Virus record (IMG/VR): IMGVR_UViG_3300009709_000002
Coordinates: 128,001 to 192,000 of that record
DNA length: 64,000 bases
Origin: a virus
Taxonomy: Duplodnaviria; Heunggongvirae; Uroviricota; Caudoviricetes
Direction: 5' to 3' (one strand)
Shown here: positions 8,304 to 58,736 of the stretch, piece by piece
Layout: each line of letters opens with the position of its first letter
Numbering within the stretch: the stretch's first letter is position 1
Program-made: the position numbers and the translations under genes
Notes under the pieces: model-generated
What the model was told of the DNA's origin: nothing
The model's database searches: none
Seen by the model: the letters and a program-made list of their open reading frames with translations, nothing else

Positions 8304-8885
8304 TTAATTGAAGTTTACCCCGGCTTTGATGAGATGTAGCTGCAAAACAGCTGCTAAAGCATATGCAATCGCGTGTGCTTTCTTAAACGCATATCCATTC
8401 GTATCTTGGCGATAAAGCTCAACACGATATCTGAGCGGATCTTGCACGTAGTTCTTCAGCATGAATCGTTTTTGCGGACGAATCAACGCCATGCAATCTG
8501 CTAGCTCAAGAATACTTCTCGGCTTTACTTGCTCGATTACTTCAAAATGTTTTGATAGCTGGAACAGCTGTTGAACGACAGATGGGATTTTGAGCAAGTC
8601 CCAATCCGGTTCTGTCTTTACCAGAATCCGAATTTCTTCTTTTGACTCAAAATAGTCGTAGATGTACAGGTGGAGAAAGTCCACCTTGAAGCAGTCTAGC
8701 TGCTCGGCGATATCATACGGGACCGCCGCAAGACCAGTGATAGGATCAACCGCTATGTCTTGAAAGTACACTCCACATGGATGGGGTAGCAGCTTACCAT
8801 CTTTGTACATGGAAGCTTTTACCACATTCTTCGGAAAGACCTTCAAGGGGTCGAAGCTATTCGGTGTATCTATGTCGATGTCCAT
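8304..8885 (-). CDS. dnaE: DNA polymerase III alpha (DnaE)-like, C-terminal catalytic fragment of a split enzyme
   Basis: Begins MDIDID; also HPCGVY, FKVDFLHL, ALIRP, YAFKKAHAIAYA, matching DnaE PDFDVDF, HAGGV, KFDFLGL, ALFRPG, YGFNKSHSAAYA. Confidence 0.85.
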   Translation of the reverse strand: MDIDIDTPNSFDPLKVFPKNVVKASMYKDGKLLPHPCGVYFQDIAVDPITGLAAVPYDIAEQLDCFKVDFLHLYIYDYFESKEEIRILVKTEPDWDLLKIPSVVQQLFQLSKHFEVIEQVKPRSILELADCMALIRPQKRFMLKNYVQDPLRYRVELYRQDTNGYAFKKAHAIAYALAAVLQLHLIKAGVNFN

Positions 8886-8891
8886 GGAAAT

Positions 8892-8921
8892 ATTCTATCA
8901 TAGAGATCAACAAAAGTAAAT
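8892..8921 (-). promoter_or_regulatory. Sigma70-type promoter, predicted leaderless transcript
   Basis: ATTTAC-N18-TAGAAT, then 6 nt, then the ATG at 8885. Confidence 0.65.
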
Positions 8922-9020
8922 TATGACAGGGAGCCCATAATCCTCAGATTACAGGCGCCCAGGTACTCCCTCTACACTTGGTAGATGAGCTTTCAAATTT
9001 ACCACCCGCGTGGGCGAACA

Positions 9021-9194
9021 TCACCCGTGGCTTGTTTGCTCGTATAGCTCTGCATTTGACACATTATGTGATCCTCTAATTGCTGATGTAAGTTGTGTCT
9101 TCAGCTCATAATTCTCTCTCACGAGATCATTGATAACTTGTTGTGCTGTCGACAATTGCTTTTCAAGAGTTTTTACTACGTGGCCTGTTGACAT
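9021..9194 (-). CDS. Small coiled-coil protein (57 aa; not in ORF track)
   Basis: TAAGGAGG SD and late promoter at 9223; MSTGHVVKTLEKQLSTAQQVINDLVRENYELK... Confidence 0.65.
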   Translation of the reverse strand: MSTGHVVKTLEKQLSTAQQVINDLVRENYELKTQLTSAIRGSHNVSNAELYEQTSHG

Positions 9195-9242
9195 TGCAGA
9201 ACCCTCCTTACGATCATGAACCTATTTATGGCCCACTTTCAA

Positions 9243-9911
9243 CTAGATACCTAAAGCCTCCGCAATTTGCTTGAGATCACGAACTTCTTGCGGGTGCTTT
9301 TCAAGCTTGTACGACCAATAATCTACACCAATTTGCTTCATCAAAAGCTGTCGTTCAGAGACAGAGTGACCAGACAGCCACTCCTTGAATTTCTTCGAAC
9401 AGAACAAAAGCCATGGTGAAAGCTTTCTTTGCTGAATGAGCTCCAACATTTCACCGAAGGCTAACTTTGGAAAGACGTCAGAAGTTGGAACTTCAAAGAT
9501 CTCGGACAGTGTCAACATAGTTTCAACCGAGATATTTGCCTGCTCCATCGGAGATGACTTTTTGTCATGCCACTCCAAATACCGCTTGTAAGCCTCCGGG
9601 TGATGCCAAAGATTAGGTTGAAGCTTCTCAGACACCATCAACTTCACATACGCCTTTGAATCAGCGATCTGTAGATCACGACAGTATTGTGCGAACTTCA
9701 TGAACGCCGTGTAGTAGCTTGACGTCATGAAGGTTTCGATTGGTGGTGCTTTACGGCGCTGAGATTCTAACCAGTGGCTATACAATCCATAAGCGGCTCG
9801 ACCGACAGGAGTTTGAATCTCCTTCGTTCGAACCATCTCCTTACATTCATGCCTCAGGTACGCTTTTTCCGTTGCGATTTTCCTGCTGCAGTATTTGCAC
9901 TCGAAGCTCAC
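9243..9911 (-). CDS. Zinc-finger protein
   Basis: N-terminal FECKYCSRK...YLRHEC. Confidence 0.65.
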   Translation of the reverse strand: MSFECKYCSRKIATEKAYLRHECKEMVRTKEIQTPVGRAAYGLYSHWLESQRRKAPPIETFMTSSYYTAFMKFAQYCRDLQIADSKAYVKLMVSEKLQPNLWHHPEAYKRYLEWHDKKSSPMEQANISVETMLTLSEIFEVPTSDVFPKLAFGEMLELIQQRKLSPWLLFCSKKFKEWLSGHSVSERQLLMKQIGVDYWSYKLEKHPQEVRDLKQIAEALGI

Positions 9912-22407: not shown

Positions 22408-22740
22408 TCACTTGTCGTGCTTTGCTGATGGAATGCTGAAAGGATGGTCAATAAACAACTGCTTTTCTGCATTCTCTAGAACGAACTGTTCTAGAGCTTT
22501 TGCAGCAGGAAGCATGATCATATTCAAAATGCCCCGCATCTCATCTGTCATGTCTTCGTAGTACAGCATCACTGTCCAAATTACACTGCCGTTTAGTGGT
22601 GACGTGTCTTTGAAAACCTGCGTCTTTGGCGATGATTCAGTCGTATTGACCTTCACAGTATCAAGCCCGAGGAGCCGGGTTTCATGCTTGTCGCCAACTT
22701 GTTTTTGCTCAATCTTGTAGATGTATGCGGTCTTGTTCAT
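22408..22740 (-). CDS. Hypothetical protein
   Basis: TAATG overlap with nrdB. Confidence 0.6.
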   Translation of the reverse strand: MNKTAYIYKIEQKQVGDKHETRLLGLDTVKVNTTESSPKTQVFKDTSPLNGSVIWTVMLYYEDMTDEMRGILNMIMLPAAKALEQFVLENAEKQLFIDHPFSIPSAKHDK

Positions 22741-23891
22741 TAGAAATCCAAAAGGTTGTCATCATTGACGTTGGTATCAAGAGCATTGATCACGTAGTCC
22801 GTGATTTCCTTCTCTTGCGGTGCAGTTTGATTGCTTTCTGCATCCAACCAGCTTGACAGCCACGTGAATGGATTGTCATTGTGCTGGTAACGCTGCTTGA
22901 GTCCGAGAGATTTCAAACGTTTGTTTGCGATGTGCTCGAGGTATTGGGACAGCAGTGTTTCATTGAGGCCGATAATCGATCCGTCTTTGAACAGATACGC
23001 AGCCCATTCTTTTTCCTGGCTTACAACTTCATCGAAGATCGCGTACACATCAGCTTCACATTCCTTCATGATCTGCAAGAAGTCAGCGTCATTTTCTTTA
23101 CGCTGAAGATTGCGAATGATGTTAAGCGGAATGCCAACGTGCTGCGATTCATCCTTAGCGATCAGACGGATGATGTCGGCATTGCCAACCATCTTGCCTT
23201 GCTGACCAAAAGCGAAGCTACATGCGAACGAGACGTAGAAACGAATCGACTCAAGAGCGTAAATTGAGATGAGCGCCAGGTAAAGCTTCTTCTTCAGCTC
23301 ATAAAGCGTGAGTTCATACGTCTTCTCATCTGGTGAACAACCATCTTGTGCAGTGGTGACTTCATGGTAGCCGGGGCCAAGAGCCTTGTACAAGTTGGCG
23401 TAGTTGATGAAGTCGTCATAGTATCGGACGATTGCAGCAGCGCGACCGACAATGTTCGAGTCTTTGAGAATAGAGTCAAAGACTTCAGATGGATCGGTGT
23501 AGAGGTTTTGGAGAATCCATTGGTATGATTGTGCGTGGATGTTCTCAAAAGCGGCCCACCAAATGACGCATCCTTCAAGCTCAGGCAGAGAAATCCATGG
23601 AATGAGCGCCACGAGAGGTGCACGTTCTTGGACAGAATCCAGCAAAACTTGGTATGCGATGTTCTTGGTGAAGATGTGACGTTCATGATCTGCGAGCAGC
23701 TTGAAGTCAGAATAATCTTTCGTGAGGTTGATTTCTTCTGGATTCCAGAAGAAACTCTTTTGAGTTCGTTTGATCTTGTCAAAGATCGGATACTTCATGC
23801 GGTCGAAACGAGCAATACCGGCTTCTTCGCCGAAAAACATTGGTTGCTCATTAGGATCAACAAAATTTAGGTTGAGAACTGTTGCGGTCAT
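22740..23891 (-). CDS. nrdB: Class Ia ribonucleotide reductase beta subunit
   Basis: FFWNPEEI, LLDSVQ, ENIHAQSY, ESIRFYVSFACSFAF, DESQH, APQE. Confidence 0.96.
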   Translation of the reverse strand: MTATVLNLNFVDPNEQPMFFGEEAGIARFDRMKYPIFDKIKRTQKSFFWNPEEINLTKDYSDFKLLADHERHIFTKNIAYQVLLDSVQERAPLVALIPWISLPELEGCVIWWAAFENIHAQSYQWILQNLYTDPSEVFDSILKDSNIVGRAAAIVRYYDDFINYANLYKALGPGYHEVTTAQDGCSPDEKTYELTLYELKKKLYLALISIYALESIRFYVSFACSFAFGQQGKMVGNADIIRLIAKDESQHVGIPLNIIRNLQRKENDADFLQIMKECEADVYAIFDEVVSQEKEWAAYLFKDGSIIGLNETLLSQYLEHIANKRLKSLGLKQRYQHNDNPFTWLSSWLDAESNQTAPQEKEITDYVINALDTNVNDDNLLDF

Positions 23892-26806: not shown

Positions 26807-28024
26807 TTAGAAGTTGAAAAGCTTCGACTCCTTGCTGTCGGTGCGTTCCTTGATATTGCTTTGCATCAGGAATTTTGCATCTGTGATGGTGCGCTCACCG
26901 TTCAGGTAGCCCATGACTTCACGAACCATGTCACCGCCTGTGCAAACCGGGACGTTCTGGCACACGTGGTTCAAGCTTTGCGTAACTAGTTCGAAATCAT
27001 GCGGCAGAGCCATCAGGTGCATACACTCACGTGGAGTCAGGATGCGATTATCACGAGGATGAATAGAATCCAACTTACGTCCAATCATCGCTGAGAAATC
27101 ACCATCAGGACGATAAAGTGACATGCTACCGTCCCAGATACCGCCGCCAGTCTCAATTTTTGCCTTGATGCGATCAATTTCACGAATCTGACGATCCATG
27201 CCCTGAGTCACGAAATAGGCACGAGCTTCATTCCACTGGTCTGTTACGAACATGTAACGAATGAGCGTCATAGTGTGCAGGCCACGTTCATACAGCACTT
27301 GGCGCATGTGAGCCAGACCTTCACCCTTAAACTTGTGTTGCAGGAATTGCATGTACGGGTTGTCGTACAGAGTTTCCTTCGCAAGCTTCAAGTCTGCGTC
27401 AGTGTGGCCAGTTACGCCGTGTGGAATTTCATCCAGATATTCGATCAGCGTCTTGCGAGGGCGCTTGTAATAGTGCATTTCTGGAGCAGCGGAATCGCGC
27501 CAGAAGAAGTAGAAAGTACGCTTACGATTTTGTGGAATGCCGTGGTAAATCGAGTCGGTGTGATAAAGCGACAGCGAGTAGCCGTTTCGATCAGCGACAT
27601 CCTGGAAGAATTCTTTGATCTCTTGTCCACGGTTTGTGTACAGCGTTGGTGCATTTTCTCCCCAGAAAACCTTTGGCTTGAGCGTGCCTAGAACATACTC
27701 GGCTGATTTTAGCATCCACTGATTTTGTGTAGCACGCTGTTCGGCGCTACCGGTGGAGAGCATAGACAGACCAGCGCAAGGACAGACAGCCGAGATGAAA
27801 TCCATGTCTTTGTACTTGGCTTCATCATAACCTTGTTCGGCATGATCAGCATCGATCTGGAAGTAGGGGGTGTTTGGAAAGCGGTGAGTTACGTTCTTCT
27901 CATTTTCCGCAAATGGAGTGTACGTGAAGAGTGCTTCTGGAGGAACACCAGTTACTTGGTGGCCAGCTTCAGTCAAACCACCAATAAGAGGGACAATTGT
28001 GCCCCAGCGAAGATTCTTTGTCAT
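26807..28024 (-). CDS. Divergent DNA cytosine-C5 methyltransferase-fold enzyme
   Basis: Motif IV CPCAGLS, VI GENAP, VIII PQNRKR, IX RILTPREC; motif I reads PLIGG and motif X reads CQNVPV. Confidence 0.85.
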   Translation of the reverse strand: MTKNLRWGTIVPLIGGLTEAGHQVTGVPPEALFTYTPFAENEKNVTHRFPNTPYFQIDADHAEQGYDEAKYKDMDFISAVCPCAGLSMLSTGSAEQRATQNQWMLKSAEYVLGTLKPKVFWGENAPTLYTNRGQEIKEFFQDVADRNGYSLSLYHTDSIYHGIPQNRKRTFYFFWRDSAAPEMHYYKRPRKTLIEYLDEIPHGVTGHTDADLKLAKETLYDNPYMQFLQHKFKGEGLAHMRQVLYERGLHTMTLIRYMFVTDQWNEARAYFVTQGMDRQIREIDRIKAKIETGGGIWDGSMSLYRPDGDFSAMIGRKLDSIHPRDNRILTPRECMHLMALPHDFELVTQSLNHVCQNVPVCTGGDMVREVMGYLNGERTITDAKFLMQSNIKERTDSKESKLFNF

Positions 28025-28047
28025 ATGCGTATAGTCTAGAAAGTAAT

Positions 28048-28077
28048 AAAGCCTAGGATGAAATATCCTAGGCTTTT
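28048..28077. terminator. Inverted repeat / terminator
   Basis: AAAGCCTAGGAT-GAAAT-ATCCTAGGCTTT. Confidence 0.55.
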
Positions 28078-28135
28078 AAGCGACAGATAATTCCGTTGAG
28101 GATATTTATCTGTCTTCTAGACTAACGCGCTGGTG

Positions 28136-28375
28136 TCAGTCGAAGCGTTGCCGCAACCAGGCTCTGAGTTCGTCTTCATTCGAGACGTCGACGAACGGAC
28201 GATCATTGCGGTGGCGAACTCGGCATTCCCAATCGCTAGAACCGTCTGAGTAATTCGTGTCGATCATGCTGCACGTTTCATCGAGAAGATGCACAGTGTA
28301 GTCAGGGTTGTTGCCATCCTTGTGCCACTTGATACCTTCTTCATCCAACACACGAGTAACGTCATCGATCTTCAT
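28136..28375 (-). CDS. Hypothetical protein
   Basis: GGAGAGG SD; 79 aa. Confidence 0.6.
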   Translation of the reverse strand: MKIDDVTRVLDEEGIKWHKDGNNPDYTVHLLDETCSMIDTNYSDGSSDWECRVRHRNDRPFVDVSNEDELRAWLRQRFD

Positions 28376-28392
28376 GATTACCTCTCCTATCG

Positions 28393-28659
28393 TTAGATGG
28401 TCAGCGTCTTGATGGCTTCATAGAAACCACCGTCAAATTTGTCTTGGTCGAAGCCGGCGTTGACGAAAGCATTAACCAGCTTCGTGAATTCTTTCTTGTT
28501 GACGTTGGTGCTGCTCAGCTGCATGTACACGAAAGCTCGTGTGCTATGAGCACGAAACTGAACGCTTTTCGTCCCATCTTCGGAGGTGTACGTGTAAGCT
28601 TCCTCTTGACGGCCTTCACCAGGAACGTTGGTGCGATCGACGAGGTTGAACTTAATCAT
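28393..28659 (-). CDS. Hypothetical protein
   Basis: 88 aa, downstream of a promoter. Confidence 0.6.
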   Translation of the reverse strand: MIKFNLVDRTNVPGEGRQEEAYTYTSEDGTKSVQFRAHSTRAFVYMQLSSTNVNKKEFTKLVNAFVNAGFDQDKFDGGFYEAIKTLTI

Positions 28660-28689
28660 GTTGTTTCTCGGTTGGTTGACGTTAGAGTT

Positions 28690-28719
28690 ATTATATCCTC
28701 AACCGATGAACAAGTAAAC
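28690..28719 (-). promoter_or_regulatory. Sigma70-type promoter
   Basis: GTTTAC-N18-TATAAT. Confidence 0.75.
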
Positions 28720-28729
28720 CCTTTTGTGC

Positions 28730-29116
28730 TCAGACGTCGGTGTGACGTTGATTTTCTTTGTTCGTCAGATCGTGAACGAGCATGATAACGTTGACTTCAG
28801 GATGCTCAGCCTTGATGATCTTTGCCTGAACCTCGTCATCCTCGAAGTGGCAAGCGATCTGATAGCCATAGCTCTTCAACTTCTGAATCTGAGCTGCTTT
28901 ATGGAAACCAGACGATTCACGGGTCTTAGCTTCGTACGGCAGCGGATTGAAGTGAACCAGGTTGTGGATGCCGCGTTTCTGTAGCATCTTGATCGTCTCA
29001 TCCGTTTCTTCGAATGAGCGGCCGGTGATGATGTGATCTGCTGGGCCTGGATGGACGCCACCGAACTCTTTGCCGATGTAGATGACGCCGTCGATGTCAA
29101 ATGTGTTGATTTTCAT
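28730..29116 (-). CDS. Capless HAD-family phosphatase
   Basis: FDIDGV (DxD), ITGRS, K, FEDD; TAATG-coupled to the glycosyltransferase. Confidence 0.85.
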   Translation of the reverse strand: MKINTFDIDGVIYIGKEFGGVHPGPADHIITGRSFEETDETIKMLQKRGIHNLVHFNPLPYEAKTRESSGFHKAAQIQKLKSYGYQIACHFEDDEVQAKIIKAEHPEVNVIMLVHDLTNKENQRHTDV

Positions 29117-30408
29117 TAGAAGCTCAGTAAACTATTGATTGAAACTTTTTCAACTTCAGCATAGCGTTCCATCGTGTCCCAAAGCGTCTTGTTGAGCTCT
29201 GAGATGCGAACAGAGCGTGCATGACGAGTCATGACTTCTCGTTGAATCTTCCCTCGTTCTTCGAGATCATTGAGACGAGGATCAGCAACGGCCGCAGTGA
29301 GCGCATCGCCAAATTCTTGCTTACGAGACAGAAGTACAGGAATGAAGTAGTCTTTGCCTAGAGTATCAAAGCAGGCATGATGAACAGTCCCGTCACGAAG
29401 CGTCTTACAGAAGACGAGAGACGGTACACCGTAAGTTCCTGCCTCGAGAGGTGCTACTGGCGACGACTCCACGGGGCACGTAACAAATAGCCCGCGCGCT
29501 TTCGAAAGGTCTTGAAGAAGCTCTTTACGAGGGGAATTACAGCAAAAATTAACAAGGCCAGGATGACGATTATCCAGGGTATCTCGGTGCGGTTTGATTT
29601 GCTCATTGTAGTACTCGTAGTCTTCGAGATTGCCGCCGAAAGCAATATAGACCTTAACCTTCGGAGGATTGGCCATGAAAGTCATCCCTTCGAGTAGCTT
29701 TCCGATGTTTTTGTCCTTCTCAGGACGCCCAATGACCATGAAATAGTCATCAGGAGCTTCAGCTTTTGGTGCAAGCGAGTTGATCGCCGTAGAATAGCAG
29801 ACCTTGTCAAAGATGCGATCGATCTCTTCATCTGACTTGATGAAGGCAAAGTGCTCACTGCCAGACTGATAGCGGCGGTGAATCAGCTTCCGCCACATGT
29901 CTCGTTGATGTTTTGAAACGCAGACAAGCGTACTGCCGTTCAACGTCATGTCACGATAGCCTTGAAGCTTCGCGAACATGCTCATATCACCAGCAGTCTC
30001 TGGCGTATTGTGGATGACACAGAGAACTGGAATGGTCTTTGACAGCTCAGCGCAGAGCTTGACGTGTGAGCTCGAGAAGCTATGGTTGATGATAGCCTCA
30101 GGTTCGAGCTGCTTGATCGTAGCTCGAATTTCAGCGGTCTTCAGCTTATTGAGACGACCTTTTTCTTGCTTGGTCACCTCGCCAGCAACTTCATAGCTTT
30201 CTTCCGAACCAGCCGAGAGCTTCACGATCTTGATTTCTGGACGATCCGGAAACACCGCATCATCCGAGTCAGACGTCGTCAAGAACAGAACTTCATGACC
30301 AAGATCAGCAAGAAGCTCGGCATGGAGTCGCTCGACAGTTTGAATGCCGCCACCAAGCTTTCCAGCGATGTGGCGCTTTTCCATCTGACACAGAACCAAA
30401 ACTCTCAT
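29116..30408 (-). CDS. GT-B fold glycosyltransferase (GT4-like)
   Basis: GGGIQTV...LGHEV, VIHN, VCVS, GRPEKDKN, ESSPVAPLEA (E-x7-E). Confidence 0.85.
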   Translation of the reverse strand: MRVLVLCQMEKRHIAGKLGGGIQTVERLHAELLADLGHEVLFLTTSDSDDAVFPDRPEIKIVKLSAGSEESYEVAGEVTKQEKGRLNKLKTAEIRATIKQLEPEAIINHSFSSSHVKLCAELSKTIPVLCVIHNTPETAGDMSMFAKLQGYRDMTLNGSTLVCVSKHQRDMWRKLIHRRYQSGSEHFAFIKSDEEIDRIFDKVCYSTAINSLAPKAEAPDDYFMVIGRPEKDKNIGKLLEGMTFMANPPKVKVYIAFGGNLEDYEYYNEQIKPHRDTLDNRHPGLVNFCCNSPRKELLQDLSKARGLFVTCPVESSPVAPLEAGTYGVPSLVFCKTLRDGTVHHACFDTLGKDYFIPVLLSRKQEFGDALTAAVADPRLNDLEERGKIQREVMTRHARSVRISELNKTLWDTMERYAEVEKVSINSLLSF

Positions 30409-31455
30409 TTAGAACTCCAGTAGGCTGGCAGCTCGTTCGGAATCTGCCTTCTTCTTTTCGGCTTCGGCCGTCTTCTTCTTTTCCTTGTTCACCTCAAGCT
30501 TTCTCGCATTGATAAGCTCTGGCTTCTCCAAGAATCGTTGATAGACGCCAAACTGACAGCAAGTAATCTCACACCCGAACGATGTTAGGAAATCTACGTG
30601 CTGCGTAGGCTTCAAATTTTGCGAGAGTGCCTTACGATCGACATCCTCATGTTCGAATATTATATCTTGATTGTCGCGAATGTAAAGGAGTATTTGCTGG
30701 TCGGTGACTTTATCCTTCTTTTGATTCGGATAGAGCTTCTCGATGGTCTTGTGAGCACCAGGACCGGCAATCACAAAGTCCTCATTCTCATTCATCGAGA
30801 TATCATAGCATCGAGCCAGGTTGGAATTTGCGTGATAGCCGTAGTAGTTGCCGATGCCTCGGTAGCTCGTCAGCTTTTTGAATGCTTCTTCCATCGTCGG
30901 GCGACATGCATAGAAGTCGATGAGACCACCCTTCTTGAATGAGGCGATCCACTCGATCATGTTGGCCCAATCGGTGTTACCAACCGCTCCACCACAATAC
31001 TCACGAGCAGCAGTTTGTAGTGACGTGCGAAGCTCTGTCGTTCCCCACTGTTCTTTCTTCTCAGTGCGAGCTCGAAGCAGATTAGCCCGAATCCACTCTT
31101 GATAATCTTCATCTTCAGGCAAACGCTCAAAGTCAATGAGATTCTTCGTTGAGAATTCTGTCTCATTGATCGCGTTCAAGATAGCCTGAGCCGGCCCGTA
31201 GAACTTGACTGCAAAAGCGTTCAAGATCTTGTTGGTGAAGGATACTTCTTCATTGAAGATGTATTTCATCAACCAATCGACCTCACCGTGGCGAGTACGA
31301 TTAGGGTGCCAGTACATTACGTCAATTTGTAGTGCCGGGTGCGGCGGCACATACTCATCTTTTCTTCCTTCAGAGATCAACACTTCACGCTTGTTGATCT
31401 CCTTCAGGAAGTACTTCAGTTCTGCTAGAACCGTTTTGTCAAATTTGTCAATCAT
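30409..31455 (-). CDS. aGPT-PPlase-type (HhH glycosylase-fold) DNA base-hypermodification transferase
   Basis: LTSYRGIGNYYGY HhH-like motif, DFVIAGPGA signature, CEITCCQFGVYQR. Confidence 0.7.
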   Translation of the reverse strand: MIDKFDKTVLAELKYFLKEINKREVLISEGRKDEYVPPHPALQIDVMYWHPNRTRHGEVDWLMKYIFNEEVSFTNKILNAFAVKFYGPAQAILNAINETEFSTKNLIDFERLPEDEDYQEWIRANLLRARTEKKEQWGTTELRTSLQTAAREYCGGAVGNTDWANMIEWIASFKKGGLIDFYACRPTMEEAFKKLTSYRGIGNYYGYHANSNLARCYDISMNENEDFVIAGPGAHKTIEKLYPNQKKDKVTDQQILLYIRDNQDIIFEHEDVDRKALSQNLKPTQHVDFLTSFGCEITCCQFGVYQRFLEKPELINARKLEVNKEKKKTAEAEKKKADSERAASLLEF

Positions 31456-32585
31456 CAGAAGAATCCAATTCGTTTGCTCTTAAATTCTCGATCAACGTGG
31501 TGCTCAGGCTCGAAGATTTCAGCGAGCGTATATTCCTCGCGAGGATGCAACGTATGCTTGATTCCTGCCTGATCGGCCAGGTTTTGCGCTTCCTCAGGAG
31601 TCAGCTTGCGGAAATCAAGTACATCATGGCAACGGCCTGGACGAATGAGTGCGTGATCGATGCTATCATATTTAGTGAGGTTAGCACTGAACACGATTTT
31701 CTTAGACGCAACTTTGATCAGACCATCAGAGATGTTCAGAATACGAGACATCAGCTTGTTGCCGTGATCTTCTCGGCTCGTGATCATCAGATCAGCGTCT
31801 TCGATGACGAGAAGATCTTGCTCATCATTCATCAAGAAGTTGATGAAGAAGTCATCCATCGCGAGAATTGCTTCATCAAACGTCAGAACAGCCGTGAGCT
31901 TATTGTTGTAGATCATGCTACGGGTGAATGAGGTCTTGCCAGTTCCAGGAGGCCCGAGCAGCAACAGAATGCTGGCGTCGCTTTCAAGGTAGCGCTTTTG
32001 GTAAGCGTCGATACCTTCAGTCATCCACGGATAGAAGGCATCTAGCGCTTTCTTCGGTTCTTCCAGCATGATCGTGCGTTGACGGCAGCTACCTTCAGAG
32101 AGGTAGTACCAGTAGACCTTGGAAAGCTTGAGGTGAGCGAAAGCTGCGTCGACGAGCTCTGCAAACTTGTTCACGAGCTTCATCGGGCCGAAAACGTCGA
32201 TTTGAATGATGCGGTTCTTGCAATCAGTTGGTGCAGCTTCATAGCCAGCAAGCTGGTCATGCGTGCGGATGATCATGATGTTCTGACCACCTTCAACGAT
32301 CACATCGGCGTCGAAAGCGTTGGACTGCGTGAACTCGTAGACGAACTGAGATGGCTTGTAAAATCCACCAGTGTTCTTGTTGATGGTTTCTTCAGCGGCT
32401 TCAAATGCGATCTTCTCGATTTGCTCAAGCGCATACACGAAAGTTCCGCGGAAGCTGATCTTGATCTGCGTGGTGAAGATGCTATCATTGAGCTGGTCTT
32501 TGAACTGAAAGATTTCAAGATAACTTGCGTCAGACTTATTGTACGCGTTGACGTTAAGATTTACACTTGGAACTTGAATAGACAC
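31455..32585 (-). CDS. AAA+ ATPase
   Basis: GPPGTGKT, LVIEDAD, LNISDG, ALIRPGR, C-terminal IGF. Confidence 0.88.
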   Translation of the reverse strand: MSIQVPSVNLNVNAYNKSDASYLEIFQFKDQLNDSIFTTQIKISFRGTFVYALEQIEKIAFEAAEETINKNTGGFYKPSQFVYEFTQSNAFDADVIVEGGQNIMIIRTHDQLAGYEAAPTDCKNRIIQIDVFGPMKLVNKFAELVDAAFAHLKLSKVYWYYLSEGSCRQRTIMLEEPKKALDAFYPWMTEGIDAYQKRYLESDASILLLLGPPGTGKTSFTRSMIYNNKLTAVLTFDEAILAMDDFFINFLMNDEQDLLVIEDADLMITSREDHGNKLMSRILNISDGLIKVASKKIVFSANLTKYDSIDHALIRPGRCHDVLDFRKLTPEEAQNLADQAGIKHTLHPREEYTLAEIFEPEHHVDREFKSKRIGFF

Positions 32586-32651
32586 AGAAGAACCTCTAAC
32601 TATAATTTGCGATATTTGAAATACTATACTACATTACAACAAAATGATATT

Positions 32652-33119
32652 TTAGGTGTCAAACCAAAATGTCTTACCATCTGTTGTTATTGCACAATCT
32701 GGAGAAAAGCGAATCTTTTTCACTTTCTTCATTAGTTCACCAACTTCTTGACCAATTACAGTAAAGCAAAATTGTTCACCGCCTGGTATCCAAACATCTT
32801 CCAACAACATTACTTCAGACCGCATCAAGATAGTTTTGACTATCTTATTAACATCTTTTTGTTTTGGCACTGGAAATGCTTGATCATTTTCATCAATATC
32901 GGTGTAATATTGACTCCAAAATTTGTCTAAAAGTTCAGATTGAACAATTAAATGTACAAGAAGTTCATTATCTTTGTCTCTAAAGAATACTCTATGGCAA
33001 TTGTTGTCATATCCAGTTTCTTTATCAAGATTCACCATTGATGAAATATCAGGATTCACCCATTTATTCTTGAATCCATTATAGTCGATCATCAAAATTT
33101 CAAATTTATCATCAATCAT
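32652..33119 (-). CDS. Hypothetical protein (AT-rich insert)
   Basis: Overlaps the endonuclease stop; low GC. Confidence 0.55.
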   Translation of the reverse strand: MIDDKFEILMIDYNGFKNKWVNPDISSMVNLDKETGYDNNCHRVFFRDKDNELLVHLIVQSELLDKFWSQYYTDIDENDQAFPVPKQKDVNKIVKTILMRSEVMLLEDVWIPGGEQFCFTVIGQEVGELMKKVKKIRFSPDCAITTDGKTFWFDT

Positions 33120-33720
33120 GTTTTCTCTTCTTACACTTATCACCATGATATGCAATCATAGAATTGTATTGACCTGTTTTTCCACAATGCTCACAAGTGA
33201 AAACCGGTCTATTTGATGCAGCTGTTTTATAGTTCTCGCGAGCTTCATCAGTGCGAACTTTACCAAGATTAGCCTTTCCAGCATTAGATGAATTTTCTGA
33301 GCGCCATTCTTTAGATTTGTTCATCAAAACATTGCTTATATGATCTCTTGTCTCTTTGTCATGCGTTTTACCAAAGAAACCATTCTTTTCACCAAGCGCG
33401 CTTTGTCTTCGTTTTTCTCTAGTTTCTTCAGTCATTGGTCCTCTATAACCACCAATTCCGCCTGGTGCTATATTCCACCCTATCTGGGCTACAGGACGAA
33501 GCTCTTTTTCTTTGTCATACGCATCCATGAAATTTTCAAATTCTTGGAGGATAACAAGGCACGAGAACGTGAGCCGATATTTTCTAATGCCGTGTCCGAC
33601 TTTATAAATGCTTTTTGTATGACTGTCAAACCTGCCTTTGACGTCATTCGTTACACCAACGTAACCGAGCTGTATGTTAGTTGGATCAGTTGGATGTGGG
33701 ATATGATAGAGATAGTACAA
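33112..33720 (-). mobile_element. Free-standing GIY-YIG homing endonuclease with NUMOD3 and a Zn-ribbon tail
   Basis: YYLY...YVG, RFDSH, E, WN; NGFFGKTHDKETR; CEHC; AT-rich. Confidence 0.8.
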
Positions 33721-33767
33721 GTGGAGATCTCCGTGTTTGAAATATTTATCAACACAGAAATCTCCAC
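33721..33767 (-). promoter_or_regulatory. RBS-sequestering hairpin with a late promoter in its loop
   Basis: GTGGAGATTTCTGTGTTGA-TAAATATT-TCAAACACGGAGATCTCCAC, then TTG start. Confidence 0.7.
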
Positions 33768-33790
33768 CGCTAAATTATGTCTTTAGCTTA

Positions 33791-35074
33791 TCATTCGTAA
33801 TCAGTTTTACTATCCTGGAAGGTATATGGCAAATCACGTGCAATTGGATCATTTACTTTCTTTTGCGGCTCAGTCATAGCCGTATAAGTGCGACGAGCGA
33901 GAGCATCACATTCAAATTTTGCATCAGCTGATGTCATTTGGCACGGAGGGCTCTTCTGTGTATACGCAGAGCATCCGCGCAGGTAACCAACGATACCCAT
34001 CTCAGCAGCGACGCGGCAGAAACGAATTGCCGAGATTACCACACCACCCGAGTTAGGGCTATCTTGCACAGACATACGAGCAGTAAGCTCATAACGAGCT
34101 CCACCAAATCCATATGCCACGATATCAAGATTAGCGATCTTGTTATCTGATCCCACATATTGACCACCCGGTTTTTGCAGCACTGTCAGTGACGGACCTG
34201 CGTAAAGCGTCATACCAGCTGTGCCAGCACCACGAACTACGTTTTGACCCTTCAGCACGTTTTCCTTCGATACGTGCTTGCTGTGCAGACGTTCCTTGTT
34301 TGCCATGTTCAGGAAGTCGGTGTTAGCCGTGCGACCTGTACGAATATGCTCTTGACCTTGCGTCGAGCCTGCAGCCATGTTCATCTGAATGTGCTGAGTA
34401 ACCATCAGGCCAGCATCCAGCATCGCACCTTGGAGAACTTCCGACAGACGGCTTGCGCCCCAGATCGAACGCATATCCGAGCCGACGATCGTCAGGCCAG
34501 CATCGATGAATTGCTGTTCGGTTTCCATCGCTTCCTTCGTCGAGATACGAGTCGGGATGCAGTTAACCATGTGGCAGCCTGCTGCTACTGCCGCGTCGAT
34601 GTAGAACTTCGATGCAGTTTCTGACCCAACCGGGCAGTAGTTGATAACAACTTCTGCTTTGATCGACTTCAGAATTTCAACTACTTCATTGAAGGTGAGT
34701 TCTGGTTGCTTGTCATCCACGCGGAAAGAAACATCTTCCGGGAAATCATGCATGTACGGTGCAACACCGTCAAGAACCGGACCCTTGTAAACACGTGCGT
34801 GAGGAGCGATTGCAGCATCGGTGATCTCAGTGACGTGATCCATGGCGCAGTTCGGCGAGGCACGAAGAGCTTCCTTCAGCGGACGGTTCACCTTGCGCTT
34901 ATCGATGTCGAAACCACCAACAAAGACGATATCTTGAGCAGCGTAGCCGCCGATATCTTCATACATCAGACCGACTTTGTCATCCGGATTTTCGATGTAA
35001 TATTGAACGCCTTCTACGAGACTTTTTGCACAGTTACCTACGCCGACGATCGCGACGCGAATTTTGTTAGACAT
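33791..35074 (-). CDS. ino1: myo-Inositol-1-phosphate synthase (bacterial/archaeal type)
   Basis: IRVAIVGVGNCA, YCPVGSE, NCIP, NTDFLNM, SKHVSK, DNK, QDSPNS, KSPP. Confidence 0.9.
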   Translation of the reverse strand: MSNKIRVAIVGVGNCAKSLVEGVQYYIENPDDKVGLMYEDIGGYAAQDIVFVGGFDIDKRKVNRPLKEALRASPNCAMDHVTEITDAAIAPHARVYKGPVLDGVAPYMHDFPEDVSFRVDDKQPELTFNEVVEILKSIKAEVVINYCPVGSETASKFYIDAAVAAGCHMVNCIPTRISTKEAMETEQQFIDAGLTIVGSDMRSIWGASRLSEVLQGAMLDAGLMVTQHIQMNMAAGSTQGQEHIRTGRTANTDFLNMANKERLHSKHVSKENVLKGQNVVRGAGTAGMTLYAGPSLTVLQKPGGQYVGSDNKIANLDIVAYGFGGARYELTARMSVQDSPNSGGVVISAIRFCRVAAEMGIVGYLRGCSAYTQKSPPCQMTSADAKFECDALARRTYTAMTEPQKKVNDPIARDLPYTFQDSKTDYE

Positions 35075-35088
35075 TGTAAGACCTTAAC

Positions 35089-35157
35089 ATTTCAGTTGTT
35101 GACGGGCATTGGTCGATGGTGTTTCACACCAGAGTAGGCCCGGGTTCAAAATGAACC
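35089..35157 (-). ncRNA. Tandem structured leader motif, copy 2 (gene-proximal)
   Basis: GGUUCA-UUU-UGAACC, CGGGC CUACUC [hairpin] CCAAU GCCCG, UC AACAACUGAAAU. Confidence 0.7.
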
Positions 35158-35196
35158 AACTAGAGGAGAGACTTGCTCAAATCAGATTGGTCCGCT

Positions 35197-35271
35197 ATTT
35201 CAGTTGTTAACGCACATTGGCTCGTATAAGACGGTGCTCATCGGAGAGTAGGTGCGGAATGCATTGCATCC
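35197..35271 (-). ncRNA. Tandem structured leader motif, copy 1
   Basis: GGAUGC-AAU-GCAUUC, CGCAC CUACUC [hairpin] CCAAU GUGCG, UU AACAACUGAAAU. Confidence 0.7.
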
Positions 35272-35280
35272 ATTACCTAA

Positions 35281-35310
35281 ATCTTAACTTCTTTCAAACA
35301 ACCTGTACAT
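35281..35310 (-). promoter_or_regulatory. Sigma70-type promoter for the ino1 leader
   Basis: ATGTAC-N18-TAAGAT; predicted +1 near 35274; a late ATAAATA also lies at 35348. Confidence 0.55.
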
Positions 35311-35373
35311 TTTAAAGTGCAAAATTGTTTGATGATTTAGATAGAAGTATTTATAAGAGTCCAGCGTGATGCT

Positions 35374-35586
35374 TCAATTTTCGCGAATCATTCGAAGTGC
35401 TTCAACCTTCGTGAAATCTGGGATCAGGTCTGGCGAGTAAAGCAGCCGCCAGGTTCCGTCAGGTAGCTCATCGAGATGAATGAAGTTCTTCCCCGTCCTC
35501 GGACTTGCCGCTTTTGAGATGTCTAAAACGAGGTTCGTGCCTTCGATAGCTATCGAGCGCTTCGGATCTTGTGATTTCTTTTTCAT
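35374..35586 (-). CDS. Hypothetical protein
   Basis: 70 aa; overlaps the 3' end of the upstream ORF. Confidence 0.5.
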   Translation of the reverse strand: MKKKSQDPKRSIAIEGTNLVLDISKAASPRTGKNFIHLDELPDGTWRLLYSPDLIPDFTKVEALRMIREN

Positions 35587-35941
35587 GCTCTTCTTTATAA
35601 AAGTCTATGAATGTTTGTGGAACTTCTATGCCACCATTTTCTATGACACGCCTAAGCCTTCCTGCGATCAACCGACGAGCTTCTGAAAGCGTTATGTCAT
35701 CTAGCAGCGCCCACAGCAATGTCCATAAATCAGTTGCAATCATCATCGATATCTGATGCCGAGCTGCTTCTAAATATGGCTTTGGCATGTGAAAATTCTT
35801 CTTACTATCAAGCTTTTCAACCTGAAATGTAATGCCTGGATTACCTGGCAACATCTCAAGTTGAGATTGATAGCGTTCGTCATATGGATTATACAGGCGA
35901 GCTTCCACCTGTATATCCTCTTGATGAATTGGAATGAACAT
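35468..35941 (-). CDS. Hypothetical protein
   Basis: TGATG-coupled to the upstream gene. Confidence 0.55.
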   Translation of the reverse strand: MFIPIHQEDIQVEARLYNPYDERYQSQLEMLPGNPGITFQVEKLDSKKNFHMPKPYLEAARHQISMMIATDLWTLLWALLDDITLSEARRLIAGRLRRVIENGGIEVPQTFIDFYKEEHEKEITRSEALDSYRRHEPRFRHLKSGKSEDGEELHSSR

Positions 35942-37041
35942 CAGAATGACAGAAGAGTGGCCGCTGTCTTAGCTGCAAGAAGCGGATTCGGCACATTTTC
36001 CTTCAAATCCCAACGATAGAATTTACGGCCAAGGTGAACTGAGCGCGGGCGCTCCATGTAGGTGTTCATGAACGCTACGCCATCCATCTTGTACCATTCT
36101 TCCGGCCATTCAAAGATTGACCAACCAGCGTGCTTAGCAGCCATCTCACGGAGACCATCGATGAAAACGTTCAGAACCGCTTGACGTTCTGCACGAGTTC
36201 CAGTGAATGGAGTGCCTTTATACCAACCAGCTTTTGGAAGTACGCGAGATTCGTCTTCGATCGGAAGCGGAGTAACCAGCTCGATCGGACGATCAAGCGC
36301 TACCAATGCTTGCTCATAGTCCCGAAGCAGCTCTTTCGTGAAAGCGATCGGATCAGCTTCACGGCAGATATGGTGACGAATGTCAATGCTTCCCCAGTAG
36401 CACGTCATCGAGTCAATGTTCTTCATATCGAAGCCATATTCCGTGATTTCATTCACGATACCCTTCTTGATGATACCACGAAGAGTTCGGCCGTCTTTAC
36501 GGAGAACGAGGGATGTCGGCTTGTAGGCCGAGAATGAGTGTGAGTCACCGATCACCAGGTGTCGAACCTTACCATTGCCATACGTCAAGCCTGGATCTAA
36601 GATCCAATCGGTGATGCCTTTGCAGCGGTCGGAAACCTTCGCCCAGTCCACGCCCTTCCAGTAGTCAGAAGGAGTTCCCTTCTTGATACCACAGCGCCAG
36701 CCGTAGTCGATCATCGGCCAATCAAGCGAGACGTATTTGATGTGGTCATGCTGTGGCCAAGCGAGACGTTCAAAGAACTTCGCCGAGTGCGGTGCAAGAC
36801 CGTCAAATACGTTCAAAACCTTACAAGCTGGTGTGTAATCGACGTCCATGCCGTGATAGATGTAGATCGTGTCATATTGACTCCAATCATCTAGACGAGC
36901 TTCACCACGTTGGTCAAGCACATCTACATCGATGCCAACATTTCGAAGTTGATTAGCGCGGAGCCAAGCCCAGGCCGCGGTGTGTGAATATTCAGTTGAT
37001 GCCAGCTTACGGCAAATCAGGTCAAGTGCAGCTTTAGCCAT
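35941..37041 (-). CDS. Two-domain protein with an SGNH/GDSL-like C-terminal domain
   Basis: LVIGDSH, DGRTLRG, WGSIDIR, RSVHL; probable start MAKAAL. Confidence 0.55.
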   Translation of the reverse strand: MAKAALDLICRKLASTEYSHTAAWAWLRANQLRNVGIDVDVLDQRGEARLDDWSQYDTIYIYHGMDVDYTPACKVLNVFDGLAPHSAKFFERLAWPQHDHIKYVSLDWPMIDYGWRCGIKKGTPSDYWKGVDWAKVSDRCKGITDWILDPGLTYGNGKVRHLVIGDSHSFSAYKPTSLVLRKDGRTLRGIIKKGIVNEITEYGFDMKNIDSMTCYWGSIDIRHHICREADPIAFTKELLRDYEQALVALDRPIELVTPLPIEDESRVLPKAGWYKGTPFTGTRAERQAVLNVFIDGLREMAAKHAGWSIFEWPEEWYKMDGVAFMNTYMERPRSVHLGRKFYRWDLKENVPNPLLAAKTAATLLSF

Positions 37042-37519
37042 TTTGTTCGGCCCAATCAAGATTAAGAGGCTCCGCGAAGACTTCCGTGGTCACAAAGTCA
37101 AAATCTGGCAACTTGAGTGACTTGACGTCAAAACCTTCTGGGATGTTAAAGGTGAGCGTTACGTGTGGGTTGTAGTATGGTCGATCATTGGTTCCACCCA
37201 TCGCCAAGAAATCCTTGTGCATTTCATGGAAGATCGGACAATCTAGGACCAGCACCAAAACGTCTTGCGTTCCAGTTTCTGAGTCAAAGATATCGAAGCG
37301 CAATGATTTAGCGACTATTGTTCTTGGACCAACTTGGTCATAAGCACGCAACACAGTTCTACGGCTAAACAACAGTGTCGTGTGGATACTCTCTACACGT
37401 ACTCTACCGCGATCAAGACCAGACGTCTTAAACCATTCTCTCAGGTTCTTCTTGGTCTCTTTCGTGTAGTAAACGCAGACATACGTCCCTTGCTTTTGTA
37501 GTATGTCTGTCATCTTCAC
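37034..37519 (-). CDS. 2H phosphoesterase, T4 gp57B/Acb1-like
   Basis: GTYV, IHTTLLFSR, YNPHVTLTF (two HxT motifs). Confidence 0.8.
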   Translation of the reverse strand: MKMTDILQKQGTYVCVYYTKETKKNLREWFKTSGLDRGRVRVESIHTTLLFSRRTVLRAYDQVGPRTIVAKSLRFDIFDSETGTQDVLVLVLDCPIFHEMHKDFLAMGGTNDRPYYNPHVTLTFNIPEGFDVKSLKLPDFDFVTTEVFAEPLNLDWAEQNG

Positions 37520-56919: not shown

Positions 56920-57978
56920 TTAACCGTCTAGTCGCTTATTGACTTGCTCAAGATACCACTGCCGAGCATGCTTCGAGATAGCTGACATCACTTCCTTCTC
57001 AGGCAATCCGCTAGCTGCGATCGTATCAGCTTCTTCCTTGTGGACGTCTTGTCCAACTGTCTTCAGGAATACTGGCGTGTTTTGAAGAGTTGCTTCAACC
57101 TTCGCAACATTTTCCATCTCGTCAAGCTTCTTTTCGAGACGGTGCTCAGTTACCAAAGCTTCTACCAGCGCACGAATGTTTTCGATCTTTTCAACGTCAA
57201 CAGGAGCTAACGTCTTCACCTTCGTTTCACTGTGTTTTTCACCCTTGACCTTGAAGACCAGGTCGCTTACACGGAACGGTACGTGAGTCGTCGGATTAGC
57301 CGTCCAGACGATGCCTTCACCTACACCGAAGACGCCAAAATGCTTACCCACTGGGCATTCATTTTCAACTTCAAGTGTCAGCTCTGACAATTTGACAGAT
57401 GCATATTCAGGCTTCGCGAAGTCAATGTGAATTTTGTATGTCTTGAACTTGTGAATGCAGAAGATCTGGTCATTCTTAGCCGTTTCACTACCATAGCCGT
57501 CAAAGACGTCACGAATCTGATGCGGAGCAAACCAGTAGCTATCTTCTTCAGTGCGCTTTACGCGAATGCCGAAGACCACAAACATCTTTGGAAGCCCGGT
57601 GATAGCCACGCCTTTCTGGATACTTTGACCGCACCACTCACCGTAGATTGCCAAGTGATCACCAGGCTGGAAGTTTTCCAGACCATAGACGATACGCGCT
57701 GAGTTGACAAGGCCTCGAATTGCAGCTGCTTTAGCCTGAACAAAAGCAGCAAAACCAGCGTTATCAGATTCAGGAGTGATCACGTTGGTACGTGATTGAG
57801 CCCACAGCTCTCCATTGTCTGTGTCTATTACTACTGCTGCGTTTGTGCCGTGCAACTTCACAGTACCAGTGAATTCAAGCTCAGGCAGTGGGATGCCATG
57901 ATATGTACAGCGATCCTTGACAGAGCGGATCACGTTACGGAACTGTTCGATTGACGGATAAGAAATATGTTGAGCCAT
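56920..57978 (-). CDS. Rnl2-family RNA ligase
   Basis: KLHGTN, SR, YGEWCG, FVVFGI, GEGIV, FKVK. Confidence 0.88.
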   Translation of the reverse strand: MAQHISYPSIEQFRNVIRSVKDRCTYHGIPLPELEFTGTVKLHGTNAAVVIDTDNGELWAQSRTNVITPESDNAGFAAFVQAKAAAIRGLVNSARIVYGLENFQPGDHLAIYGEWCGQSIQKGVAITGLPKMFVVFGIRVKRTEEDSYWFAPHQIRDVFDGYGSETAKNDQIFCIHKFKTYKIHIDFAKPEYASVKLSELTLEVENECPVGKHFGVFGVGEGIVWTANPTTHVPFRVSDLVFKVKGEKHSETKVKTLAPVDVEKIENIRALVEALVTEHRLEKKLDEMENVAKVEATLQNTPVFLKTVGQDVHKEEADTIAASGLPEKEVMSAISKHARQWYLEQVNKRLDG

Positions 57979-58055
57979 GTTTCCCTCCTATTTTTCTCAA
58001 TTTTGAGAAGTGATTTTAAACCAACATCAAAATTGTGGATATTTTTAAGCAAAGA

Positions 58056-58079
58056 AAAAGCCGGCTAAGCCGGCTTTTT
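58056..58079. terminator. Terminator hairpin
   Basis: AAAAGCCGG-CTAAG-CCGGCTTTT. Confidence 0.7.
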
Positions 58080-58101
58080 CAGAATGGAGCCTAGCGAACG
58101 T

Positions 58102-58704
58102 TTATGTGCTGTATCGCACGCTCTGAACGGCGATGTTCAAGAAGCCGATTCTCGACCGGACATTTGGATTTTCCAGGTCATTGAGCAGCTTGCCGTGATC
58201 TTGACCCGAGGTTGCACCCCAAAGAGCCGAGACGAGATTTTCAACTAGCGACTCACGAGGATCATACTTGATCTTCAGAACTGCCGGGTGATGAGTGTCC
58301 AGCATCTCTTGCGCGATGCGACGACCTTCCGCTTTGTCAAAGTTTTCGTGCGGCTTGCAGATCGAGTAACCTACGTGCAGAATCTTTGCATCGTGATGGA
58401 TGTTGAAAATCAGCGTGAGACCGCCGAGATTGTCATCAACCACAGTGTATTCATCTGGCACCGCTGTTTCGATAGCAATTTTCGGACGAGCGTAACGAAC
58501 TACGCCAGTCGTCACCTTGTCTTGAATTCTACCAAGACGCGGTCGTTCGGTGCCGAGAACAGCATGAACTTTGTCTTCCAGGTCAGAAACGAGCTCGATC
58601 TTGACTTCTTCATCCATGTAGTCAAGAGCATGTTCAATCGACTTATTGTCACCGAGTCGACCGAGAATTTCCTTCACGATCTTTGCTGCGTATGTATCTT
58701 TCAT
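58102..58704 (-). CDS. Hypothetical protein
   Basis: 200 aa; AAGGA SD. Confidence 0.6.
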   Translation of the reverse strand: MKDTYAAKIVKEILGRLGDNKSIEHALDYMDEEVKIELVSDLEDKVHAVLGTERPRLGRIQDKVTTGVVRYARPKIAIETAVPDEYTVVDDNLGGLTLIFNIHHDAKILHVGYSICKPHENFDKAEGRRIAQEMLDTHHPAVLKIKYDPRESLVENLVSALWGATSGQDHGKLLNDLENPNVRSRIGFLNIAVQSVRYST

Positions 58705-58736
58705 TTCCTTTTCAGCTGATGAAATTCAGCCGCCGG

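Follow-up and report, generated by a model that had tools for sequence, protein, structure and literature searches.

What does a homolog of myo-inositol-1-phosphate synthase (MIPS) do among the DNA-acting enzymes of a phage? The question is raised by a 64,000-nucleotide stretch of viral DNA (the window; bases 128001-192000 of IMG/VR record IMGVR_UViG_3300009709_000002), whose 360,227-bp source contig, which carries direct repeats at its termini and has a G+C content of 47%, we assign on its sequence to a T4-like jumbo phage. Clustered in about 10 kb of the window are genes encoding MIPS, a small HAD phosphatase, a helix-hairpin-helix protein designated P5, an SGNH-fold protein designated P10, a divergent C5-cytosine DNA methyltransferase (C5-MTase), and a GT4-type glycosyltransferase. 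A preliminary description of the window had proposed that inositol or a glycosyl-inositol is installed on a DNA base. As detailed below, MIPS is indeed tied to DNA-acting enzymes, and the genome encodes a predicted hydroxymethylase, while the attachment itself is read from gene context. We assign a probability of about 0.5 to the reading that MIPS and the HAD phosphatase supply inositol and that P5, together with P10, would attach it to 5-hydroxymethylcytosine (hmC) in replicated DNA.

The six genes all lie on the minus strand, as had been described, at the following positions:

26807-28024, minus strand: divergent C5-MTase (PF00145), with the C-terminal tail ...SKLFNF
28730-29116, minus strand: minimal capless HAD phosphatase of 128 aa, with HAD motifs I-IV (phrog_415)
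29116-30408, minus strand: GT4-type (GT-B) glycosyltransferase (PF13439), with the tail ...NSLLSF
30409-31455, minus strand: P5, a helix-hairpin-helix HMUDK_hel-type protein of 348 residues (PF18723), with the tail ...ASLLEF
33791-35074, minus strand: MIPS homolog of 427 aa (1gr0, PF01658)
35941-37059 (database start 37041), minus strand: P10, an N-terminal domain plus an SGNH/GDSL-fold domain seen in the predicted model, with the tail ...ATLLSF

A scan of IMG/VR revealed at least 488 contigs that encode a relative of MIPS, indicating that the synthase module is common. The best 80 of these relatives were combined with four other contigs to give 84 loci, 83 of them non-duplicate, and a gene was counted as a neighbor if it lay within 10 kb of MIPS. 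Among the 84 loci, the HAD gene was a neighbor in 80, P5 in 60, P10 in 50, the C5-MTase in 28, the AAA ATPase described below in 4, and the GT4 gene in 3, all of the last being close relatives. When only non-duplicate loci were considered, HAD was found in 79/83 and P5, P10, or both in 60/83. A further 12/83 loci, without P5 or P10, carried a TET/JBP enzyme, a PF18724 amino-acid:DNA transferase, or P-loop kinase 3. An enzyme of 5-hydroxymethylpyrimidine chemistry was therefore found near MIPS in 72/83 loci, and the rest were mostly truncated contigs. The HAD gene also adjoins MIPS in the cultured phages RP13, Moby, and Cr30.

The order of these genes varied while their adjacency was kept, with arrangements including MIPS-HAD-P5-P10-C5MT, P10-MIPS-HAD-P5, MIPS-HAD-P10-P5, and P10-HAD-MIPS-MT21-x-P5. 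The conserved core is MIPS-HAD-P5-P10, with the C5-MTase optional, and the GT4 and AAA ATPase genes are lineage-specific additions. Most loci that lack P5 and P10 have a second architecture, found in the 172.5-kb phage G002 and in the cultured Caulobacter phage Cr30, in which genes for a TET/JBP enzyme and a TAGT-like protein accompany a PF18724 transferase gene placed directly upstream of MIPS, followed by HAD and P-loop kinase 3. In a third, MIPS and HAD are set within a 7-deazaguanine cluster, with FolE (GTP cyclohydrolase I) on one side and QueC on the other; examples are an environmental contig (L020 6598-13578) and Stenotrophomonas phage Moby (L005 9204-14618), and at least one of the 83 loci lies in such a cluster. 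In L020, a TnpB/IS605 OrfB gene (8557-9828, opposite strand) has inserted just upstream of MIPS. A neighborhood survey of phage MIPS homologs had been put forward in the preliminary description as a check on its idea; the survey places modification enzymes beside most of these genes, in two non-homologous pyrimidine architectures, and a functional link between MIPS and DNA-acting enzymes is supported.

The proteins of the cluster could be further sorted by their C-termini. An LLxF-type tail was found in only 9 of the 511 open reading frames (ORFs) of the genome, among them those encoding the family-B DNA polymerase (QSLLSF), the RNase H/FEN exonuclease (TSLLSF), GT4, P5, P10, the C5-MTase, and NrdB. 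The tail of NrdB, the small subunit of ribonucleotide reductase (22740-23891, minus strand; ...NLLDF), may be no more than the ordinary R1-binding tail of this subunit, and a similar ending, ...AMFEF, was noted on an 88-residue DUF4326 protein (G000:C1 102684-102950; L008 685-951). In the viral loci surveyed, a tail of this kind was carried by 47/51 P5, 40/44 P10, and 24/24 C5-MTase proteins, by 8/73 HAD proteins, and by 0/83 MIPS proteins. The tail tracks the polymerase of the same phage: the G002 polymerase ends in SLEDFFG, and its ADDT, TET, and TAGT-like proteins end in SLEDFF or TLEDFF. Judged by this distribution, P5, P10, GT4, and the C5-MTase act on DNA in step with replication, and MIPS and HAD work in solution. 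What is known of T4 gp43 and gp45 makes the sliding clamp the most likely partner for the tail. Polymerase-type tails offer a simple sequence marker of DNA-acting enzymes in such phages.

The same observations can be read in another way, in which MIPS and HAD would be auxiliary metabolic genes that make free inositol, or divert glucose-6-phosphate, to an end other than DNA (a solute, a signal, interference with host metabolism or defense, or the decoration of a virion protein), and would lie near modification genes only by way of a shared variable region. All three architectures do occupy the stretch bounded by the polymerase, uvsX, and replicative helicase genes, and the polymerase-type tail is absent from MIPS and HAD. 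Moreover, MIPS is ~70-77% identical across loci versus ~30% for P5 and P10, as would be expected of an independently selected metabolic gene, and the MIPS-HAD pair occurs with three modification systems that are unrelated in their chemistry. However, the pair is interleaved within the modification modules (flanked by P10 and P5, by ADDT and P-loop kinase, or by FolE and QueC) rather than set beside them, its adjacency persists through rearrangement, and the proportion of loci with a 5-hydroxymethylpyrimidine enzyme within 10 kb is high (72/83). To our knowledge, inositol is not required for growth by Caulobacter, Stenotrophomonas, or Ralstonia, and we would not expect inositol synthesis in the proteobacterial hosts of the cultured relatives; a module serving hosts without a need for inositol would be unlike the usual relief of a host bottleneck. 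We consider this explanation unlikely, although it is the chief alternative to inositol on DNA.

Free inositol is universally made in two steps, by MIPS and then by a phosphatase, and the reading in which these enzymes provide inositol for DNA depends on what the two phage proteins make. The MIPS homolog aligned with Ino1 of Mycobacterium tuberculosis (PDB 1gr0; E 5.7e-55) over residues 2-386, with the VGVGNCA motif aligned, and matched PF01658 at 33.8 bits (cut-off 27), so that the earlier MIPS call is borne out over nearly the full length. The next-best solved relative was Ari2, a five-membered cyclitol-phosphate synthase (6k96; E 8e-30). The actinobacterial Ino1 equivalog model TIGR03450 scored 210 bits versus a cut-off of 638, and the phage protein has insertions relative to the M. 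tuberculosis enzyme. It is best classified from its sequence as a family member rather than an Ino1 equivalog, and its substrate and product are therefore inferred. HAD motifs I-IV (FDIDGV, ITGRS, Lys, and FEDDE) are visible in the translation of the phosphatase gene, upholding its earlier identification despite a weak Pfam match of 19 bits, under the cut-off of 27; the protein was assigned to phrog_415, which is PNK-phosphatase-like.

The GT4 gene is translationally coupled to the HAD gene. The N-terminal domain of its product matched PF13439 at 34.6 bits, which passes the cut-off, and the C-terminal match to PF00534 (Glycos_transf_1) was weak, at E 0.017 and below the cut-off; the earlier GT4-like assignment is supported in the first domain, the second being a putative one. 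Sequence searches against solved structures returned no relatives of GT4, P5, or P10. For the C5-MTase, in keeping with the original call, PF00145 was matched at E 1e-20 (74.9 bits versus a cut-off of 22), and the PC (PCAG), EN (ENAP), and QxRxR (QNRKR) blocks were recovered in an alignment with DNMT and M.HaeIII, in which motif I departs from the usual form (PLIGG). The C5-MTase gene closes a compact MIPS-HAD-P5-P10-C5MT operon in many loci.

These properties of MIPS, HAD, and GT4 bear on whether the DNA might be decorated with something other than inositol, namely inositol phosphate, with HAD acting later on DNA, another cyclitol, or a pre-assembled glycosyl-inositol. Capless, PNK-phosphatase-like HAD forms such as this one often target macromolecule-bound phosphates, Ari2 is the second solved relative of MIPS, the Ino1 equivalog score falls short with insertions in the protein, and the coupling of the GT4 and HAD genes would suit a glycosyl-inositol precursor. 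Yet MIPS is far nearer to Ino1 than to Ari2, its pairing with a phosphatase is the route to free inositol, HAD is without the tail of the DNA-acting enzymes, and GT4 has that tail and so probably works on DNA and not on a soluble precursor. We find a different group on the DNA improbable.

Returning to the proposal that inositol itself is attached, P5 is the candidate for the enzyme that transfers a group to a 5-hydroxymethylpyrimidine in DNA. Pfam revealed a match to PF18723 (HMUDK_hel) at E 3.7e-15, and with E values of up to 5 this remained the only match, with the PF18724 ADDT profile unmatched and no kinase family detected. No Walker A motif was found in the 348 residues, so that P5 has the helical domain of a 5-HMUDK and not its P-loop kinase domain, and is not placed in that class. 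An alignment of 30 P5 relatives revealed Glu296, Cys300, and Gln301 to be invariant, together with a GIGxYYGYH block; in the amino-acid:DNA transferase class, Cys and Glu are essential (PMC8989533). The predicted model of P5, with a predicted local distance difference test score (pLDDT) of 90.7, matched best the PaMx11 gp46 5-PmdU glycinyltransferase 8z2n (Z 9.9, root-mean-square deviation 4.0, 224 residues aligned), followed by HhH-GPD DNA glycosylases. This ranking came from a second aligner only, as Foldseek returned nothing at E <= 0.001 with the same model. The label of aGPT-PPlase-type transferase given to this gene in the preliminary description is accordingly changed: the Pfam family is PF18723 (HMUDK_hel) rather than aGPT-Pplase/ADDT.

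P5 was found fused to FkbM-type (PF05050) methyltransferases in proteins P0241 and P0243, which suggests that in some lineages the appended group is O-methylated. FkbM-type methyltransferases are also encoded separately within related MIPS clusters (L011 5882-6637 and L013 6666-7403). No relatives of P5 were found in phages RP13, Moby, and Cr30, which have other architectures.

P10, for which 484 homologs were identified, matched no Pfam family. In its predicted model (pLDDT 89.8), residues ~157-352 matched SGNH/GDSL folds exclusively, with Z values of 9.2-12.2 for the top 50, and an N-terminal domain with no fold assignment precedes them. A GDSH block and His336 were invariant across 35 family sequences, and the earlier SGNH-like call is thus upheld by fold and catalytic-type motif rather than by Pfam. 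One guess is that P10 acylates the modification. P10 and P5 are joined in a single polypeptide in Aeromonas phage 44RR2.8t (ORF233c, 795 residues), in phage 31, and in P0242, and neither MIPS nor HAD was found near the fusion gene in the two Aeromonas phages. Immediately upstream of ORF233c is ORF234c (the two genes together at L094 4256-8236), encoding a vSGLT-like Na+/sugar symporter (E 3e-103), which may be an alternative polyol or sugar supply replacing MIPS and HAD.

Examination of the whole genome revealed an ordinary ThyA and a second, divergent thymidylate-synthase homolog (G000:C1 ~57101-58036), encoded ~70 kb upstream of the window. This protein matched PF00303 at 75 bits, and its best solved relatives were the CMP hydroxymethylase MilA (5b6d) and the T4 dCMP hydroxymethylase (1b49). 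The alignment has the PC and RSxD...ND motifs, Asp at the position of ThyA N177, and a retained Asp169. Asp at the N177 position is diagnostic of cytosine specificity, and D169N of 5-hydroxycytosine synthases (PMC13326640). The second homolog is thus a predicted cytosine-type dCMP hydroxymethylase of the gp42/MilA type; identity as a 5-hydroxycytosine synthase was rejected in view of the retained Asp169. A thymidylate-synthase homolog with both Asp residues was present in all four P5/P10-bearing genomes tested (the present genome, G000, the IMG/VR genomes G001 and G003, and 44RR2.8t), and no thymidylate-synthase homolog of any kind was found in the TET-type genome G002. Flanking the hydroxymethylase gene are, on one side, a GT2 glycosyltransferase gene with TPR repeats (phrog_13126; L002 2226-3299; G000:C1 ~58060-59133) and, on the other, a thymidylate/dNMP-kinase-like gene. 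Searches of the genome for TET/JBP, ADDT (PF18724), P-loop kinase 3, MazG, and dUTPase_2 gave no matches. The preliminary description had recognized no hydroxymethylase, TET/JBP, or kinase in the window; with the entire genome in hand, a predicted hydroxymethylase is encoded elsewhere, and TET/JBP and P-loop kinase 3 gave no match genome-wide.

That P5 and P10 are instead replication-coupled repair or processing factors (glycosylase-like and esterase, working on damaged DNA or that of the host) or removers of modifications, with the inositol genes unrelated, is very improbable, for although SGNH enzymes are mostly hydrolases, P5 matches a hypermodification-kinase Pfam model and has a DNA group transferase as its top structural match, it occurs fused to FkbM-type methyltransferases, P5 and P10 share an operon with MIPS, HAD, and the C5-MTase, and the dCMP hydroxymethylase accompanies them in 4/4 genomes.

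The pathway that we favor, with inositol on hmC, would proceed as follows. MIPS would convert glucose-6-phosphate to inositol phosphate, from which HAD would release free myo-inositol, while the gp42/MilA-like dCMP hydroxymethylase would cause cytosine to enter DNA as 5-hydroxymethylcytosine. The tailed enzymes would then act behind the replication fork, tethered most likely to the sliding clamp, where P5 and P10 would exchange the hydroxyl of the 5-hydroxymethyl group for an inositol oxygen, giving an ether. In the present lineage, the tailed GT4 would probably glycosylate the inositol or any hmC left over, and the C5-MTase may methylate residual cytosine or aid the chemistry at C5. The likely gain to the phage would be resistance to host nucleases. 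The wider proposition, that several T4-like lineages ether-link self-made myo-inositol to hmC by tethered enzymes, with 5-hydroxymethyluracil (5hmU) the base in the sister architectures and GT4 glycosylating the product here, is offered tentatively, and we hold it somewhat less probable than not. Literature searches for inositol and phage DNA modification returned only incidental mentions, concerning the MshA-like folds of DNA glycosyltransferases; no paper on inositol in DNA was found, in agreement with the preliminary description, to which no inositol-modified base was known.

A number of considerations weigh against this pathway. Gene identities, folds, shared tails, and co-occurrence are observed, and every substrate, the order of the steps, and the product are assigned from gene context alone. 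The 80 surveyed IMG/VR loci carry the closest MIPS relatives (>= 69% identity), and since the sampled loci are close relatives, their co-occurrence reflects in part shared ancestry; the genes could also be neighbors in some cases simply through their position, as all architectures occupy one variable region bounded by the polymerase, uvsX, and helicase genes. MIPS and HAD also occur in 7-deazaguanine clusters, where there is no obvious chemistry for an inositol adduct. The core operon has no recognizable kinase or other activating enzyme, whereas in the known pathway phosphorylation precedes transfer. The ADDT Pfam model (PF18724) is not matched by P5, and the Z of 9.9 between its predicted structure and 8z2n lies in a range that chance can produce among helical proteins. 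The C5-MTase is hard to place if hmC replaces cytosine, and no dCTPase-type family was found in the genome in the searches for MazG and dUTPase_2. Finally, the sliding-clamp gene was not located in the genome using PF02916, PF09116, or tblastn with the Moby and Cr30 clamps, for which reason the receptor of the tails is only inferred; the clamp must be very divergent.

Two further genes of the cluster are:

31455-32585, minus strand: AAA-domain ATPase of 376 aa (PF00004, E 1.7e-9; phrog_14322)
32652-33155, minus strand: 167-aa protein (phrog_25544)

The AAA, P5, GT4, and HAD genes are contiguous or share one base and so make up a single tightly packed operon, and the insertion of a clamp-tailed GT4 and the AAA ATPase into the core is particular to this window. 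The 167-aa protein, a possible accessory factor, has a homolog encoded in L016 and another in Caulobacter phage Cr30, where its gene comes immediately after MIPS. Between the MIPS and AAA genes is a gene for a GIY-YIG/NUMOD3 homing endonuclease (33112-33720, minus strand). In a relative with ~80% protein identity (L010), the order is P10-x-MIPS-AAA-P5-GT4-HAD-C5MT-NrdA and the endonuclease is absent, which indicates that it entered the cluster recently. Immediately upstream of P10, with an overlap at the P10 start, is a gene for a homolog of the Acb1 anti-CBASS phosphodiesterase (PF23474, E 5.8e-25; 37034-37519, minus strand). Genes around the cluster encode NrdA, NrdB, UvsW, UvsX, a UvsY-like protein, gp32, the large terminase, and a gp15-like tail protein. 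The 10-kb cluster region had no match in a nucleotide search of a cultured-phage collection.

The hypermodifications known in phage DNA consist of sugars, amino acids, and polyamines. If the inositol pathway is correct, a cyclitol-bearing base would be a new chemical class of DNA modification, present in hundreds of environmental phage genomes, and two uncharacterized DNA-acting families would be gained, the stand-alone HMUDK_hel protein and its SGNH-fold partner. Because each architecture is represented among cultured phages (Cr30, Moby, RP13, and 44RR2.8t), the idea can be tested by standard nucleoside mass spectrometry.

Of the described systems, that of thymine hypermodification provides the closest precedent for the proposed chemistry. 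There, 5-hydroxymethyldeoxyuridine (5-hmdU) in DNA is phosphorylated, and a helix-hairpin-helix transferase employing Cys and Glu generates an exocyclic methylene that is attacked by a nucleophile, which in phage ViI is the serine hydroxyl, forming an ether (PMC8989533). As with the 5-hmdU kinase and aGPT-Pplase2/AADT enzymes of ViI, M6, PaMx11, and PhiW-14 (PMC8989533), we propose a post-replicative change of a 5-hydroxymethylpyrimidine by a helix-hairpin-helix enzyme, and P5 has the Pfam match to the kinase helical domain, 8z2n as its top structure, and an invariant Glu and Cys as candidate counterparts of the catalytic pair. In the sister architecture of Cr30 and G002, MIPS has the PF18724 transferase, the P-loop kinase, and TET/JBP as its neighbors. 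In contrast to thymidine hypermodification, the base predicted here is cytosine, as 5hmC, P5 has neither a P-loop domain nor PF18724, the SGNH-fold P10 is added, the core operon lacks a kinase, and a phage-made cyclitol is proposed as the donor in place of an amino acid or polyamine.

Two other pathways share part of the proposed logic. In the arabinosyl-5-hydroxycytosine pathway of RB69 and DLP3 (PMC13326640), as here, the phage encodes the building block (by a sugar-phosphate enzyme and a small HAD protein), GT4-like transferases, and a cytosine altered by a thymidylate-synthase homolog. However, the Asp169 retained in our phage predicts a hydroxymethyl rather than a 5-hydroxy group, and there is no isomerase, kinase, or nucleotidyltransferase for a nucleoside diphosphate sugar; a glycosyl-transfer mechanism is in any case inapplicable to inositol, since inositol has no anomeric carbon. 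The synthesis of the mycothiol core by Ino1, MshA, and the MshA2 phosphatase also brings to mind the proximity of MIPS, GT4, and phosphatase genes in the window, and the preliminary description had drawn this analogy. It is weakened by the survey, in which GT4 was present in 3/84 MIPS loci, outside the conserved core, and missing from the other 81; GT4 also has the tail of the DNA enzymes, and no further mycothiol genes are present. The resemblance is probably coincidental.

The glucosyl-hmC pathway of the T-even phages (gp42, gp1, and the alpha- and beta-glucosyltransferases) is matched in the thymidylate-synthase homolog with Asp at the N177 position, which would make hydroxymethyl-dCMP before replication, and in the presence of a GT-B enzyme. 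Unlike in the T-even phages, there are no alpha- or beta-glucosyltransferase homologs, the core decorators would be P5 and P10, the enzymes bear polymerase-type tails, the dCTPase family was undetected, and the route to the precursor is encoded by the phage. The comparison extends to phages described before. A 2010 review noted that Aeromonas phages 44RR2.8t and 31 have genes 42 and 56 and no glucosyltransferase, and left open what modifies their hmC (PMC2993671). The P10::P5 fusion present in both phages bears on this question, as a candidate modifier of hmC in phages that are positive for gene 42 and negative for glucosyltransferase.

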